From the NCBI GenBank assembly GCA_963795085.1, contig CAWCFX010000004.1, positions 713,072-777,071 of the forward strand: DNA of 64,000 nucleotides. Reading direction: 5' to 3'. Under the pieces are notes generated by a model that saw only the letters and a list, made by a program, of their open reading frames with translations, was not told the origin of the DNA and did no database searches. Numbering within the stretch: position 1 is the first letter of the stretch; every line of letters starts with the position of its first letter. Position numbers and translations under genes: made by a program. The DNA is from an uncultured Gemmatimonadales bacterium. GTDB taxonomy: Bacteria > Gemmatimonadota > Gemmatimonadetes > Gemmatimonadales > GWC2-71-9. Positions 36,641 through 42,812 of the stretch are shown here, piece after piece.

Positions 36641-36940
36641 AATTGGGGGAATGGGAATGGGAATGGGGAATTGAGGGAATTGAGGGAATGAGGGAATTGA
36701 GGGAATGTGGGAATTGTAAAGGCATCCTCCAATTCCAACATTCCCTCAATTCCACCATTCCCTCAATTCCCCCATTCCCTCAATTCCCCCATTCCCTCAA
36801 TTCCAACATTCCCTCACTTCCAACATTCCCTCAATTCCAACATTCCCTCAATTCCCCCATTCCCTCAATTCCAACATTCCCTCAATTCCAACATTCCCTC
36901 AATTCCAACATTCCCTCAATTCCAACATTCCCTCAATTCC
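36641..36940. repeat. Head-to-head 8/9-mer array: (GGGAATTGA/GGGAATG)n then (AATTCCAACATTCCCTC)n
   Basis: G-rich arm about 36641-36717, C-rich arm about 36729-36940, between divergent genes; same family as 563-692. Confidence 0.95.
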
Positions 36941-36961: not shown

Positions 36962-39589
36962 ATGCCCCCTCATCTCGATCGCCTCAAGACCCTCCTCCGG
37001 GAGCGCTACGCCATCGAGCGCGAACTCGGCAGCGGGGGGATGGCCACGGTCTATCTCGCCGAGGACCTGCGGCACCACCGCAACGTGGCGGTCAAGGTGC
37101 TCCGCCCGGAGATCGCCGCCTCCCTCGGCAGCGAGCGGTTCTTCCGGGAAATCGAGGTGGCCGCACGGCTGCAGCATCCCCACATCCTCCCCCTCCTCGA
37201 TTCCGGCGAAGGCGACGGGCTCTACTGGTTCGTCATGCCCTATGTGGCGGGGGAATCGCTGCGCGACCGGCTGACCCGGGAGGGCGAGCTGCCGGTGCAC
37301 GACGCGGTGAAGATCCTGGCCGAGGTGGTGGACGCGCTGGCCGCGGCGCACGCGGAGGGCGTGGTGCACCGGGACATCAAGCCGGACAACGTGATGCTTT
37401 CCGGCCGACATGCGCTGGTGACCGACTTCGGGGTGGCCAAGGCGGTGAGCGAGGCGACCGGCCGGCAGACGCTGACCACCGCCGGGGTGGCCCTCGGCAC
37501 CCCGTCCTACATGGCGCCGGAGCAGGCGACGGCCGATCCCCAGCTCGACCACCGGGTGGACATTTACGCCGCGGGAGTGTTGGGCTACGAAATGCTGACG
37601 GGCAGCCCGCCGTTCGTCGGGCGGAGTGCGCAGGAGATCCTGGCGGCGCAGGTAACCCAGGCGCCGATGGCGATCACGGCCCGGCGAGCCGCGGTGCCGG
37701 CGGCGCTCGAGGCGGTGCTGATGAAGTGCCTGGAGAAGCGCCCCGCCGACCGGTGGCAGCACGCGGAGGAGCTGCTGGCCCAGCTGGAGGTCCTGGCCAC
37801 GCCGAGCGCGGGGATGACCCCGGTCCAGACCCGGCCGATCCCCGCGGTGGCGGCGCCGCCCCGGCAGTTTCCCCGTTGGGCCGCGTGGCTCACGGGCGGG
37901 GCGCTGGTGGCGGGCGGCGCGCTGGCGCTCAGCCTTCGGCAGTCGCCGCCCGACCTGGTGCGGCTTGGTCAACGCACCGTGGTGGCGGCCGAGCCGGCGT
38001 TCGAGGGCTGGCCCTCGCTCTCGCCGGATGGGAAAGTCATCGCCTATGGCCGGTGGGAGGCGGGCGTCCAGGAAGTCATCGTGCAGCAGGTGGACGGCGG
38101 GGCGCCTGTCGTGGTGACCGCCCCGGTGCCGGGCGCCAACGGCTTGTCGGCCATCTCGCCCGATGGAAGCCGGATGCTCATGGTCGGCGACGATGGGCTC
38201 TACCTGATGCCCACCCTTGGGGGCCAGGCGCGGGTGGTCGCGACCGCGCCCGCCCTGTTCCCGGCCTGGTCAGCGGATGGCTCCCGGTTTGCCTTCGTCG
38301 GCGGCGGTGCGCTCGACACCCTCTACCTGCAGGCGCTGGAGGGGTCGGGCCGCACGGTGATCGCGACTGGGGCGATGATCCATTCTCCCGCCTGGTCCAC
38401 CGATGGCGAATGGGTCGCCTACGTGGAGGGGAACGTCTTTTTCCATACCAGGGGAAACACGGCGCCCAGCTCTCTCAAGCTGGTCCGCGCTTCGGGGGGC
38501 ACGCCCATCGCGCTCAGCGATTCGACTTCGCTCAACACGAGCCCGGTGTGGATCCCCGGGCGGCGGGCGCTCCTGTTCATCAGCAATCGCGAAGGGGGGC
38601 GGGACATCTACCAGCTGGAGGTGAAAGGCTCGGGGCAGCCGCAGGGCAGGGGCGTCAGGATCACCACCGGCCTCAACCCGGAACGGCTCAGCTTCTCGGC
38701 GGACGGCCGCCGGCTGGCCTGGTCGGTCCTGACCCAGACCTCGAACGTGTGGTCCATCGCCATTCCCGGCCGGGACTCGGTGCCGCTCTCCCGGGCCCGC
38801 CAGGTGACCAGCGGAACCCAGAATATCGAGAACGCAGTGGTGTCCTCCGACGGGTGGCTCTACTACGACTCGGACCGGAGCGGCAACTTCGATATCTGGC
38901 GGATTCCCCTGGCCGGCGGCCAGCCGCAGCAGCTCACCACCGATCCCGCCGATGATTTTGCGCCGGATCCCTCACCCGACGGTAAGCAGGTGGCCTTCCA
39001 CTCCACGAGAAACGGGGTCAACAACCGGGACATCTTCGTGATGCCTGTAGGGGGAGGAGCGGCGGTCCAGGTTTCGACCAGTCCGGGGGACGATCGCGGC
39101 CCCAACTGGTCGCCGGATGGCCGGTTCCTGTCCTGGGGTGATAACTACTCCGACAGCGGGGTGCTGTTGGTGGAGCAACAGCCCCGCGGCGGCTGGTCGG
39201 CCCCGAGACGGTTCCTCGGCCACGGAGGAGATTCCTGGTCAGCCGATGGGCGGTTTGTAATCTTCGATTCGCTGGGCATGCACCTCGTGGATCCGGGCGC
39301 CGGGGGGCGCAGCCTGCTGCTCTCCATGCAGGCGATAGGAGGCCGGGGCTTCTCCTACAGCGTCCTGTCCGCCGACCTGCGCACCGTGTACGCCCCGAGA
39401 GTGGACAGCACCGGCCGGTTTTCCATCGTGGCCTTTCCGGTGGGAGGGGAAACCTCCCGCACCCTGGTGTACGCCGATAACCCGCTGGCACAGCAGCACC
39501 GCTACGGGCTGGAGGTGTCCGGCGGCCGGTTCTATGTGCCGGTGTTGGAGGCGAAGCTGGACGTATGGGTGGGGGAGGTGAGGCAGTGA
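36962..39589 (+). CDS. Ser/Thr protein kinase with TM segment and TolB/PD40 beta-propellers
   Basis: LGSGGMATV, AVK, HRDIKPDN, DFG, YMAPEQ; repeated PxxSPDG blades. Confidence 0.92.
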   Translation: MPPHLDRLKTLLRERYAIERELGSGGMATVYLAEDLRHHRNVAVKVLRPEIAASLGSERFFREIEVAARLQHPHILPLLDSGEGDGLYWFVMPYVAGESLRDRLTREGELPVHDAVKILAEVVDALAAAHAEGVVHRDIKPDNVMLSGRHALVTDFGVAKAVSEATGRQTLTTAGVALGTPSYMAPEQATADPQLDHRVDIYAAGVLGYEMLTGSPPFVGRSAQEILAAQVTQAPMAITARRAAVPAALEAVLMKCLEKRPADRWQHAEELLAQLEVLATPSAGMTPVQTRPIPAVAAPPRQFPRWAAWLTGGALVAGGALALSLRQSPPDLVRLGQRTVVAAEPAFEGWPSLSPDGKVIAYGRWEAGVQEVIVQQVDGGAPVVVTAPVPGANGLSAISPDGSRMLMVGDDGLYLMPTLGGQARVVATAPALFPAWSADGSRFAFVGGGALDTLYLQALEGSGRTVIATGAMIHSPAWSTDGEWVAYVEGNVFFHTRGNTAPSSLKLVRASGGTPIALSDSTSLNTSPVWIPGRRALLFISNREGGRDIYQLEVKGSGQPQGRGVRITTGLNPERLSFSADGRRLAWSVLTQTSNVWSIAIPGRDSVPLSRARQVTSGTQNIENAVVSSDGWLYYDSDRSGNFDIWRIPLAGGQPQQLTTDPADDFAPDPSPDGKQVAFHSTRNGVNNRDIFVMPVGGGAAVQVSTSPGDDRGPNWSPDGRFLSWGDNYSDSGVLLVEQQPRGGWSAPRRFLGHGGDSWSADGRFVIFDSLGMHLVDPGAGGRSLLLSMQAIGGRGFSYSVLSADLRTVYAPRVDSTGRFSIVAFPVGGETSRTLVYADNPLAQQHRYGLEVSGGRFYVPVLEAKLDVWVGEVRQ

Positions 39590-39680
39590 GAGTGCAGAGT
39601 GCAGAGTGCAGAGTGCAGAGTGACGAGTGACGAGTGCAGAGTACAGAGTACAGAGTACAGAGTGACGAGTACTGAGTAAC
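39588..39680 (+). repeat. Heterogeneous 7-mer array HGAGTRM, about 13 units
   Basis: AGAGTGC, AGAGTGA, CGAGTGA, AGAGTAC, CGAGTAC and TGAGTAA in unbroken 7-bp register, directly after the stop codon. Confidence 0.95.
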
Positions 39681-39727: not shown

Positions 39728-39838
39728 AGATCCCTAACCCCCTGACCCCCTTTCCTTGCCCCCCTGCCCTCCTGCCCCCTTGCCCCCTTCCTGTCCCACT
39801 GACCCACTGACCCACTGACCCACTGTCCCACTGTCCCT
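39728..39838 (-). repeat. Composite C-rich tract: AGATCCCTAACCCCC fragment, (TGCCCCCY)n and (TGWCCCAC)n 8-mers
   Basis: Read directly; abuts the -35 box of the ankyrin promoter. Confidence 0.85.
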
Positions 39839-39839
39839 C

Positions 39840-39868
39840 TTGACGACCCGCCACCCCGCCTGTACTCT
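39840..39868 (+). promoter_or_regulatory. Sigma70-type promoter TTGACG-N17-TACTCT
   Basis: Near-consensus -35 (39840-39845), 17-nt spacer, -10 (39863-39868). Confidence 0.65.
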
Positions 39869-39884
39869 GGTCGCAGGCGTGCAG

Positions 39885-40000
39885 GACGCCTCCCGTCCGC
39901 GGGAAGGACCGAGTCCACCTGCGTAGTGCGCAGGACGAAGAGTTCGAATCCCACGAACCTCCTTCGCCCGGGCCAGCGGACCTCGGGCGCCACAGGAGGC
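39885..40000 (+). ncRNA. Candidate structured cis-regulatory 5' leader RNA (four-way junction)
   Basis: Nested stems GTCCGC/GCGGAC, GGAC/GTCC, CCTGCG/CGCAGG, CGAAG/CTTCG plus GTTCG/CGAAC, directly before AGGAGG and the ATG. Confidence 0.55.
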
Positions 40001-40005
40001 TCGTT

Positions 40006-41304
40006 ATGCCCGTTCGTCGCCTGCCGGTTCGTCCCGATCTCACCCAGCTCAAGCACCAGGCCAAGGACCTGCTCCGCGCGTTTCGCCGCGGTGATCGCCG
40101 AGGCGGTGGCACTCTTCCGCCGAGTGGCATCCAGGCGTCATACCGGAGGGAGCGAAGCTGGCCGACGCGCAGCATGCGCTGGCGCGGTCCTACGGCGCCG
40201 CCAGTTGGACCCGGGTGGTGCAGTGCTGCCAGCTGATCGACGCCATCTGGGACGACGACCTCGACAGCGTTCGCCGCCTGGTCACGGCCCATCCCAATCT
40301 CCTCACCGAGAACGCCGGCATCGGCAACCGGAACTGGGGGCCGCCGATGAGCTACGCCGCCAATCTCGGACGCGACCGGATCATCCGGCTGCTGTACGAC
40401 CTGGGCGCGCGTGATCTCGAGACGGCGATCGACCGCGCGGTGCTCCAGAGCCGAGTGAGCACCGCCGCGATGCTGCACGAGATGCTGGGCCGGGCGACGC
40501 CGCCGGACGACGCCTTCGGCGGGCCGGCCTATACCCTGAGCGTGCCGGGCACGGAGTTTCTCTTCCGGGTGGGAGCGCGGGTCCGGTTTCCCGATGGCAG
40601 CCAGCGGGCACCGGTCGAGGCGGCGATCGGGTCCGACAGCCGGAACCCGGCGGCCAAGCGGCGGATCCTCGAGCTCTACGCCGAGCATGGGTACGAGTAC
40701 CCGGACACGCCGATCATGGCGTTTCACCGCGGGCGGTTCGACCTGCTGGAAGAGCACCTGGCCCGGGACCCCGGGCTGCTCGCACCGCCGGTTCGCGATC
40801 CACGAGATCTTCCCGCCGGAGGTGGGATGCCACCACCCACCGTACGAGTGCATGGGGACGCCGGTGGACGGCGGCACGCTGCTCCACCTGGCGGTGTACT
40901 GGGACGAGCTGGACATGGCGGAGTGGCTGCTGGAGCGCGGCGCCGACGTCAACGCGGGGACGGCCCTCGAGGTCGACGGGTTCGGGGGACACACCCCGCT
41001 CTTCAACGCGGTAGTATCCCAGGCCGCTTTCTGGATGAACTACCAGGGCGGCGGGCCCCCTCGGCCGGAGGACGCACGGTTCGCCGAGCTGCTGCTCGCG
41101 CGCGGGGCCGACCCGAACGCGCGGGCGTCCATCCGGATGCGGCTGGGCGAGGGCCATGGCGATCCCCGCATCCGGGAGTTCCGGGATGTCACCCCCCTCG
41201 ACTGGGCTCGGCGGTTGCACGACGAGACGCTGCCGGAGAGCAAGCACAGCGAGCGGCTGTTTGTGAACCAGGCGGCGGTCAAGCTACTCAGCATTGAGGA
41301 CTGA
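40006..41304 (+). CDS. Ankyrin-repeat protein with N-terminal LPxRPDLxQLKxQAKDLL domain; three +1 frameshifts
   Basis: Removing single bases near 40096, 40118 and 40783 gives one ORF of about 431 aa: KLADAQHALARSYG, GPPMSYAA, GTLLHLAV, LLERGADVN, GHTPLFNAV, LLARGADPN, VTPLDWA. Confidence 0.8.
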
Positions 41305-41321: not shown

Positions 41322-42111
41322 GTCATTGCGAGGAGCGCGCAGCGCGACGAAGCAATCTGGCTCGGGTGAGCCGGTGAGCGGATTGCCACGTCGGCCTGCG
41401 GCCTCCTCGCAATGACTGCGCTATTTATCCGGTGCAGTCGTCTGTCGCACTGGGAGTTTCCATAGTCATTGCGAGGAGCGCGCAGCGCGACGAAGCAATC
41501 TGGCTCGGGTGAGCAGGTAAGCAGTGCCACGTCCCGGGCCTCCTCGCAGTGACTGCGCATTCATCCGGCGCAGCGTCGGCCTGCGGCCTCCTCGCCATGA
41601 TTGCCCTATGTTCCGGCGGCAGGGAGCAGGTTCTTTCGCACTGGGAGTTTCCATAGTCATTGCGAGGAGCGCGCAGCGCGACGAAGCAATCTGGCTCGGG
41701 TGGGCAGGAAGCCCGCTCCCGAGCCAGGTGAGCAGATTGCCACGTCGGCCTGCGGCCTCCTCGCAATGACTGCCCTATGTTCCGGCGGCAGGGAGCAGGT
41801 TCTTTCGCACAGGGAGATTCCATAGTCATTGCGAGGAGCGCGCAGCGCGACGAAGCAATCTGGCTCGGGTGCGAAGCCGGTGAGCAGATTGCCACGTCGG
41901 CCTGCGGCCTCCTCGCAATGACTGCCTATGTTCCCAAGCCAGGTGAGCAGATTGCCACGTCGGCCTGCGGCCTCCTCGCAATGACTACCTCGGTTCCCAA
42001 GCCAGGTGAGCAGATTGCCACGTCGGCCTGCGGCCTCCTCGCAATGACTGCCGAGGTTCCCAAGCCGGGTGAACAGATTGCCACGTCGGCCTGCGGCCTC
42101 CTCGCAATGAC
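41322..42111. repeat. Cluster of RPE/REP-like palindromic elements (GTCATTGCGAG...GCAATCT and AGATTGCC...CTCGCAATGAC arms)
   Basis: Left arms at 41322, 41465, 41656, 41825; right arms near 41381, 41735, 41887, 41949, 42013, 42076, plus two degenerate copies. Confidence 0.9.
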
Positions 42112-42197
42112 TGCCCCCCCGTCCGGCCTGGCCCCGCATTAGGATTCGAGGCCCGCGCCCGGTGCGATCCCGGATGTCTCCTTCAAGGAGGATCTCC

Positions 42198-42729: not shown

Positions 42730-42812
42730 TCCTCACCCCTGACCCCTCTCCAACCTCACCCCTGACCCCTCTCAAACCTCACCCCTGGCCCCTCTCCATT
42801 TCATGGAGAGGG
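42730..42812. repeat. REP-like CCTCACCCCTGRCCCCTCTC x3 ending in hairpin CCCCTCTCCAT-TTC-ATGGAGAGGGG
   Basis: Read directly, between convergent genes. Confidence 0.8.

Follow-up and report, generated by a model that had tools for sequence, protein, structure and literature searches.

The question raised by this locus is whether the untranslated leader of an ankyrin-repeat gene is a regulatory RNA and, if it is, what fold it takes and what might act on it. The locus belongs to a stretch of 64,000 nucleotides (nt) from an uncultured Gemmatimonadales bacterium (contig CAWCFX010000004.1 of assembly GCA_963795085.1, positions 713,072 to 777,071), here called the window, and its leader runs on the + strand from about position 39875 to the ATG codon at 40006, i.e. 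over about 130 nt. A first-pass annotation of the window had described a cis-acting riboregulator with a leader of this length, in which a four-way junction enclosed three hairpins and left the Shine-Dalgarno (SD) sequence free, and an alternating OFF fold masked it with either of two anti-SD segments. The riboregulator was upheld by covariation across homologues; the junction was not. Judged from the alignments, the leader is a genuine, strongly conserved folded RNA that hides the ribosome-binding site of the downstream gene. It probably belongs to an uncatalogued, phylogenetically broad class of regulatory RNA, either an orphan riboswitch or the dedicated partner of a new RNA-binding domain, and the family of proteins under its control, whose shared domain is uncharacterised, numbers more than 5,000 clusters at 50% identity.

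Conserved fold of the leader

The leader alignments A2 and A3 were made by MAFFT, and A4 (100 matches) and A5 (31 matches) were aligned to a covariance model, R1, built from 51 leaders. The members of A4 had been selected by a search pattern that fixed 19 core positions, so that much of their sequence invariance was imposed by it; A5 was not selected by pattern. As A4 and A5 were fitted to helices P1, P3 and P5, the counts for these helices lean towards the model, from which two further pairings, PK1 and P2a, and a loop-loop pairing are absent. The elements of the fold are the following.

39876..39890, + strand: hairpin P1, GGCGU (39876-80) paired with ACGCC (39886-90), loop GCAGG (39881-85)
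39882..39885, + strand: 5′ strand of PK1, CAGG in the P1 loop, partner 39918-21
39891..39893, + strand: 5′ strand of P2a, UCC, partner GGG at 39901-03; this stem of 2-3 base pairs closes the loop C-GUCCGC
39895..39900, + strand: 5′ strand of the loop-loop pairing, GUCCGC, invariant in A4, where the pattern required it
39901..39905, + strand: GGGAA, the 3′ strand of P2a followed by a conserved unpaired AA
39906..39916, + strand: hairpin P3, GGAC-CGA-GUCC (39906-09 with 39913-16)
39918..39921, + strand: 3′ strand of PK1, CCUG, on the 3′ side of P3; in the lineage of the window also the 5′ end of a local hairpin at 39918-34
39922..39953, + strand: variable region, unconserved in length and sequence, with zero conserved columns in A3 and A4
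39954..39963, + strand: 5′ strand of P5b, the anti-SD CGAACCUCCU; both-side changes in 5 of the 6 modelled pairs
39966..39970, + strand: 5′ strand of P5a, GCCCG, partner 39984-88
39976..39981, + strand: 3′ strand of the loop-loop pairing, GCGGAC, in the apical loop of P5, complementary to the GUCCGC loop
39984..39988, + strand: 3′ strand of P5a, CGGGC, partner GCCCG at 39966-70
39994..40003, + strand: 3′ strand of P5b, AGGAGGCUCG, including the SD AGGAGG (39994-99)

The first-pass annotation had proposed looking for covariation upstream of homologues, and it was found. Considering the 100 sequences of A4 together, 92.4% of the cells paired against 82.8% in shuffles, none of 500 shuffles being as high, and pairing fell to 36–47% when the partners were slid by 1–3 columns. 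Both sides had changed in 19 of the 30 pairs (303 cells, against 100.9 in shuffles), and compensatory changes occurred in many of more than 130 homologues for P1, PK1, P2a, P3, P5a and P5b. Since G-U pairs are frequent, e.g. UG in 37 cells at columns 109/200 of A4, the sense strand is fixed. Among the modelled helices, P1 (A4 columns 4-7/21-24) had both-side changes in 3 of 4 pairs, with GGCG/CGCC, GCAU/AUGC, GCAA/UUGC and GUGC/GCAC as alternatives; P5a had them in 4 of 5 pairs (GCCCG/CGGGC, GCCUG/CAGGC, GGCCG/CGGCC, GUCUG/CAGAC); and P3, which paired in 99.5% of the cells, had them in 2 of 4 (GGAC/GUCC, GGGC/GCCC, GGGA/UCCC).

The pairings PK1, P2a and loop-loop covary despite their absence from the covariance model. 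In PK1 all five pairs changed on both sides (CAGG/CCUG, UCGGA/UCCGA, GGCAGA/UCUGCC, CGAUCG/CGAUCG). A two-base P2a stem is possible in 131 of 131 sequences, compared with 111 on average and 118 at most in shuffles, and the rows without a GG dinucleotide on the 3′ side were compensated in 14 of 14 cases (UC/GA three times, AC/GU four, GC/GC six and AU/GU once), these rows stemming from few lineages and not being independent events. The pairing of GUCCGC with GCGGAC, seen by the first-pass annotation as a closing stem, was supported as a loop-loop contact; compensated variants were found in only three sequences, all of them from A5 (GGCCUGC/GCAGGCC, CCCGC/GCGGG and GUCCAC/GUGGAC), and most A5 rows, not all, keep GUCC-GC. 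Such a geometry, in which a loop of 6–7 nt closed by P2a pairs over its full length with a second hairpin loop, is familiar from kissing complexes. At GGGAA, the composition of A4 columns 40-44, which are pattern-fixed positions, was G100, G100, A71/G29, A100 and A100. In some Gemmatimonadota paralogues of A5 the RAA after P2a is altered to GCA, AGA or GC-AA (rows L093, L094, L096, L107, L229-L232, L245 and L247 are those listed for this variation), and these may be specificity variants.

The pairing of the anti-SD CCUCCU with the SD AGGAGG, which had been proposed for the OFF fold, was borne out, and it covaries. The duplex of the anti-SD with its own SD had a median energy of −12.3 kcal/mol, compared with −8.2 with the SDs of other sequences, the own SD being better in 95 of 100 cases. 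P5 alone had a median folding energy of about −20 kcal/mol, and in the minimum free energy (MFE) folds at least 5 of the 6 SD columns were paired in 62 of 100 homologues. The covarying fold thus sequesters the SD, contrary to the free SD of the four-way junction. The conserved helices are all compatible with one fold and the ribosome-binding site is buried in it; the default state would therefore repress translation of the downstream gene. Seven leaders from Acidobacteriota and Planctomycetota records (L163, L180, L184, L195, L204, L214 and L218) carry an extra GC-rich insertion of about 20–45 nt ahead of the SD, following GCGGAC or the 3′ strand of P5a, where the alignment is unreliable; they look like a variant architecture of the expression platform.

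Folding of single sequences is of limited use for this leader. The + strand from 39875 to 40010 had an MFE of −63.8 kcal/mol (z = −2.30), and 3 of 200 shuffles folded equally well; as the − strand scored similarly (z = −2.54), the comparison of energies with shuffles, another check put forward at the outset, was favourable on the + strand and by itself decides nothing. The MFE fold of the window leader was the one with CCUCCU paired to the SD, not the four-way junction, and the z-scores of four leaders were −2.06, −1.30, −2.32 and +0.09.

The strings from which the junction had been assembled were all found in their places.

CGCC 39887-90, GGCG 39986-89, GTCCGC 39895-900 and GCGGAC 39976-81, + strand: proposed closing stems, confirmed by position
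GGAC-CGA-GTCC 39906-16 and CCTGCG-TAGTG-CGCAGG 39918-34, + strand: hairpins 1 and 2, confirmed by position
CGAAG/GTTCG/AATCCCA/CGAAC/CTTCG 39936-66, + strand: hairpin 3, confirmed by position
AGGAGG 39994-99, CCTCCT 39958-63, GCCTCC 39888-93 and ATG 40006, + strand: SD, two anti-SD segments and start codon, confirmed by position

The only correction to the letters is that three bases, not two, separate CGAAC from CTTCG. The partners are others, however: CGCC pairs with GGCG at 39876-79 in P1, and GGCG at 39986-89 falls within the CGGGC that pairs with GCCCG at 39966-70. Hairpin 1 is P3 and covaries, while hairpins 2 and 3 lie in the variable region and are unconserved. Hairpin 2 overlaps the 3′ strand of PK1; L010, an orthologue from the same genus, was the only one seen to keep it, one of the pairs there being G-U. 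Inspection by eye showed a counterpart of hairpin 3 (GGUUC/GAACC) in roughly half the members of the nearest subfamily and not beyond; in the window (39942-39958) and in the relatives L042, L050 and L054 its 3′ strand (CGAAC) overlaps the base of P5b, and it might compete there with the lower SD helix. Its likeness to a tRNA T arm was not sustained, as the loop of GTTCGAATCC is replaced in L010 and sits in the variable region, and ARAGORN found no tRNA in the 64-kb window. The supposed second anti-SD, GCCUCC, is really the 3′ strand of P1 together with P2a and is not kept, being GCACCCA in L011 and GCAUCCA in many others.

Occurrence, linked protein family and the locus in the window

The genome of the window (G000) contains a second copy of the leader on its contig 1 (locus L002), before a paralogue starting MSRILPGRPSLEHLKSQAK. 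R1 scored the window copy at 99.8 bits and the second one at 78.2 bits, the next match in this genome being at 19.6 bits (E 0.2). Within the genus, leader identity was 87% in genome G004 and about 68% in G003. The exact pattern GTCCGCGGRAAGG-N50-80-GCGGAC was present in 86 of 301 genomes of the same order (30/136 in family f1, 50/137 in f2 and 5/27 in f3), and the reversed pattern used as a control gave 2 matches. Of 151 genomes sampled from the phylum, 41 carried the motif according to R1, the highest number of copies in one genome being 5.

A pattern scan over all prokaryotic species genomes, which is not a census, yielded at least 120 loci. R1 recognised, at E ≤ 0.01, 87 of the first 100 (86 at 39.8–106.6 bits and one at 19.4 bits), and 12 further loci were also confirmed. 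Among the matches listed, the 98 confirmed loci, assigned by the titles of their records, span about 12 phyla, the placement of some genera being presumed: at least 48 are from Acidobacteriota, at least 13 from Actinomycetota, at least 11 from Pseudomonadota, at least 8 from Gemmatimonadota, at least 4 each from Verrucomicrobiota and Planctomycetota, at least 2 each from Chloroflexota, Armatimonadota, Eremiobacterota and Eisenbacteria, and at least 1 each from Poribacteria and Myxococcota. The distribution is patchy, with the motif rare in Streptomyces (2 of 121 sampled genomes), and the carriers include some cultured Actinomycetota and Pseudomonadota. Cultured carriers with a match to the model are, among others, Streptomyces sp. 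P1-3, Nonomuraea typhae, Amycolatopsis sp. A133, Jiangella anatolica, Thalassospira xianhensis and Roseibium suaedae. The unpublished genome G018 underlies none of the conclusions.

The genes behind these leaders encode a common N-terminal domain (N-domain) of about 80 amino acids, with the consensus LPxRPxLExxKKQAKxLL...DPEA...HP...LADAQxVIAREYGFxSWPxL in the protein alignment A6. When the 150 nt on the 3′ side of each pattern locus were scored with a hidden Markov model of this domain, the threshold of 10 bits was reached at 98 of 102 motif loci from many phyla (98 confirmed by R1 plus 4 by eye), at none of 18 chance loci (13 negative by R1, one at 19 bits and 4 by eye) and in none of 102 control frames. 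The link was also examined in 11 genomes, namely six Gemmatimonadales, Streptomyces sp. P1-3, Burkholderia sp. LMG 21824, a Bryobacteraceae and a Pirellulaceae metagenome-assembled genome and Nonomuraea typhae. An R1 match was directly upstream of 25 of their 27 N-domain genes, and an N-domain gene followed 25 of their 27 R1 matches. The four exceptions were two divergent N-domains (31 and 35.5 bits) and two weak RNA matches, L242 (G128:C48:15723-15836) and G362:C70:4413-4548, of 43.6 bits each and with no N-domain gene behind. L242 is visibly cut, without the P5a/GCGGAC part, and both may be decaying copies. The leader is thus confined to a single protein family; intact genes of other families were not seen behind it in the genomes and loci examined, and the neighbours read at three loci had none in common.

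In most of the proteins ankyrin repeats come after the N-domain, in the others LRR, HEAT or Clp_N domains, while N-domain and leader stay constant. The ankyrin identity of the gene in the window was established through its orthologue at L010, with 35.6 bits on PF00023 (cut-off 21.1), and other family members reached up to 100 bits on Ank_2. The N-domain is not modelled in Pfam or NCBIfam: at its position Pfam gave a lone sub-threshold N-terminal match (PF20066, in one protein), and NCBIfam and PADLOC gave only generic ankyrin or HEAT rows below cut-offs. A profile search for it retrieved 10,137 cluster representatives at E ≤ 0.001, of which 5,300 had E ≤ 1e-10; among the matches listed it lies nearly always at the extreme N-terminus (start at residue 1-20 in most of 150 rows), and it is often doubled within one protein. 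A 3,962-residue representative, P0121, has 57 stretches matching the profile, which together with the doubled cases indicates that all or part of the domain can be repeated within a protein. AlphaFold2, run with 96 sequences, modelled the N-domain as four helices (predicted local distance difference test, pLDDT, 81.4; predicted template modelling score, pTM, 0.68). The domain is basic, with a median net charge of +4 and a positive charge in 90%, the remainder of the protein being acidic (median −12). Sequence comparison with the PDB gave nothing below E 0.4 for it, and the ESM Atlas only 'hypothetical' clusters with scores under 0.9.

Around the leader of the window, three further features were delimited.

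39840..39845, + strand: −35-like hexamer TTGACG, predicted from its 17-nt spacing to the −10-like element
39863..39868, + strand: −10-like hexamer TACTCT at a conserved position; predicted transcription start about 39875-76
40006..41304, + strand: regulated gene, with an N-terminal LPxRPxLxxLKxQAK...ADAQ..AR.YG..SW domain followed by the ankyrin region

The promoter of the first-pass annotation gained support, as the motif TAnnnT was found 32–36 nt upstream of GUCCGC at 85 of 150 loci (about 18 of which are chance pattern matches) against 10 of 150 in a control window, and this conserved position of the −10 element would place the start of transcription at the base of P1. A sigma-70 promoter scan of the window called no promoter at TTGACG/TACTCT, so that it is the conserved position that points to the −10 element.

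The gene begins with MPVRRLPVRPDLTQLKHQAKDLL, ends at 41304 and occupies three reading frames in this assembly, with frame changes near 40097, 40117-40135 and 40782 relative to the intact 434-residue orthologue (L010 in genome G004). Soil-metagenome contigs cover parts of the window, the frame changes near 40097-40135 lying outside their coverage. One independent contig, over 266 nt of the gene, differs in a single letter and in addition lacks base 40783; at least one frame change, that at 40783, is therefore probably an assembly error or a strain variant. A second contig spans 39899-40049 with zero differences and confirms the leader sequence there. Among RNA sequencing runs, none is recorded as containing this stretch, which speaks neither for nor against its expression.

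Tandem repeats are abundant nearby and create long spurious extensions of open reading frames. A 7-mer in about 12 copies directly follows a kinase gene, a 17-mer in 12.4 copies lies upstream of this gene, and an 8-mer in about 13 copies directly precedes the leader promoter; with further 7-mer and 23-mer repeats, the intergenic repeat regions are 39585-39678, 39732-39837, 36647-36940 and 42731-42798. The soil contigs matched 39757-39870 with many short pieces, at a depth higher than over the gene. Between 41300 and 42150, a 63-nt unit repeated 3.9 times (41874-42115) and related copies on both strands yield overlapping spurious reading frames with recurring peptide strings, and by appearance form a dispersed or tandem element like the repetitive extragenic palindromes (REP).

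Possible control of the leader

The following course of events would agree with these data. Transcription probably starts at the base of P1, and a compact 5′ domain may fold first, with P1, PK1 (the P1 loop paired to the CCUG after P3) and P2a, which would present the GUCCGC loop. After the variable spacer, the anti-SD and GCCCG pair with the SD and CGGGC to form the long hairpin P5, whose apical loop carries GCGGAC. A factor that stabilised or disrupted the 5′ domain and the loop-loop contact would then set how often P5 opens. The two possibilities raised by the first-pass annotation, a sensed ligand or binding by the downstream protein, remain the leading options for this factor.

The most likely factor would be the basic four-helix N-domain of the encoded protein, or of its paralogues, whose binding to the leader would produce autogenous feedback on all genes with an N-domain. 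Such control through a putative leader-binding N-domain is given somewhat less than an even chance, and is slightly favoured over a small-molecule riboswitch. It is favoured because the link between RNA and domain is nearly one-to-one in both directions, whatever the C-terminal domain, and because the N-domain is basic and N-terminal in position. Several observations weigh against it. The 11 genomes of the gene-to-RNA count had been picked for carrying the RNA, and co-inheritance of a 5′ gene module would also yield a one-to-one link. The RNA core is near-invariant while the twelve N-domains of A6 are only 33–65% identical to the first, an invariance of the RNA that is no less typical of metabolite aptamers than of protein sites. 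The N-domain model matched none of the known RNA-binding folds, Foldseek finding nothing in the PDB at E ≤ 0.001 and a wide VIA-align search giving a best Z of 3.8. As to the RNA itself, P5 was present in the pseudoknot-free MFE fold of only 41–47 of 100 sequences, and P2a and the loop-loop helix may either coexist, as in a kissing complex, or alternate.

A riboswitch, in which the pseudoknotted 5′ domain and the loop-loop contact would form a pocket for a small molecule or ion, is possible and is held with a little less conviction. The ligand might lock the kissing complex and the SD helix (OFF switch) or break them (ON switch). The components are there, with a structured and covarying 5′ domain and an expression platform in the form of the covarying SD-sequestering helix P5, and the architecture resembles that of translational riboswitches with the SD helix inside a folded aptamer. 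The complexity of the fold, its two tertiary pairings, the near-invariant unpaired bases (GG-RAA and the A before PK1) kept in about 12 phyla and the RAA variants, of the kind found in riboswitch subclasses, would also suit a ligand. A riboswitch tied to a single gene family would have a precedent in the nadA motif (NAD+ riboswitch class I), which is reported only upstream of one gene family and largely in Acidobacteria (PMC6859854). On the other hand, no transporter or enzyme gene associated with the leader hints at a ligand, and the encoded proteins are protein-binding repeats without a metabolic role. The exclusive position before one family, and the N-domain that almost never occurs without the RNA in the 11 genomes, are further difficulties, and we know of no metabolite riboswitch with an equally tight two-way gene link. 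No conserved alternative ON helix was found: GGRAAGG, tried as an anti-anti-SD, paired too weakly with the anti-SD (−6.85 kcal/mol compared with −6.08 in shuffles, better in 71 of 100).

It is unlikely that the leader works without a dedicated effector, i.e. by damping translation constitutively, as an RNA thermometer or as the target of some global factor, for instance a small RNA, an RNase or a helicase. P5 is stable on its own, and many members pair a U-rich anti-SD (CUUCUUUC) with the SD in a manner reminiscent of fourU/ROSE thermometers. However, thermometers and dampers need the SD helix only, while here about 45 nt of 5′ domain are conserved in sequence across phyla along with two extra tertiary pairings, and it is this conservation that makes the reading unlikely. 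A simple hairpin of the fourU/ROSE type was likewise discarded as a description of the leader, given the extra 5′ domain with PK1, P2a and the loop-loop pairing. Lastly, the four-way junction alternating with an OFF fold is highly improbable, for although its strings are complementary in the window and the inner two CGCC/GGCG pairs are complementary in 80–87 of 100 sequences, this stem paired no better than in shuffles (66.2% against 65.7%, with 155 of 500 shuffles equal) and had zero covariation in the 100 sequences, its two strands covarying with their partners in P1 and P5a, and neither hairpins 2 and 3 nor GCCUCC are conserved.

Novelty and comparison with known systems

The scan of Rfam 15 suggested by the first-pass annotation produced no match to its families: nothing in the 64-kb window reached the gathering score, nothing between 39500 and 40300 had E ≤ 10, and 20 homologous loci of many phyla gave nothing at E ≤ 1. 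Full-text literature searching did not find a description of the motif, and neither did term look-ups in the main texts of PMC11109978, PMC5737381 and PMC2864571, whose supplementary motif lists lay outside the coverage and could still hold one; nor does this result extend to the 'Solibacter-1' motif of PMC2864571, which is without an Rfam deposit. The leader is rated a new class among the structured SD-sequestering leaders, and what sets it apart is how widely it occurs, that it has two tertiary pairings and that it is tied exclusively to the N-domain.

Complex and widely distributed cis-regulatory RNAs absent from catalogues are now rare finds, and this one has hundreds of instances and occurs in the dominant soil phyla, many matches being from Acidobacteriota and Gemmatimonadota records. 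It opens a first way to the function of a large family of repeat proteins, for whose N-domain Pfam has no model, as whatever the leader senses also controls that family. It is besides a clean test case for riboswitch versus autogenous control and, as a natural kissing-loop SD switch, a reusable part for synthetic biology. If the N-domain does bind the leader, the two together would make up a new module of RNA-protein recognition, and the proteins could serve as adaptors linking RNA to protein targets.

Four known systems invite comparison. The nadA motif differs in fold and in gene, and its gene hints at the ligand while the repeat proteins here do not. Cobalamin riboswitches, with their L5-L13 kissing loop, are alike in that the hairpin carrying the ribosome-binding site is paired, through its apical loop, with a loop of the sensing domain, a contact that controls access to the SD; the leader has a much smaller 5′ domain, a gene context unrelated to B12 and no cobalamin match in Rfam (E ≤ 10 in the window region and E ≤ 1 in the 20 homologues). 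In SAM-II, preQ1-II and similar pseudoknot riboswitches, the SD/anti-SD helix is also part of the conserved fold and the folded state is OFF, whereas the SD of the leader lies in a long hairpin with an internal loop, the kissing interaction is separate and no Rfam match exists. Autoregulatory leaders in front of genes for ribosomal and other RNA-binding proteins, such as the pseudoknot operators of S15 and L20, share with the leader the restriction to one family, the pseudoknotted structure, the occluded or trapped SD and the proposed binding of the product. The product here is not a known RNA-binding protein, and the core of the leader, in contrast with those systems, is kept across about 12 phyla, with up to 5 paralogues per genome.

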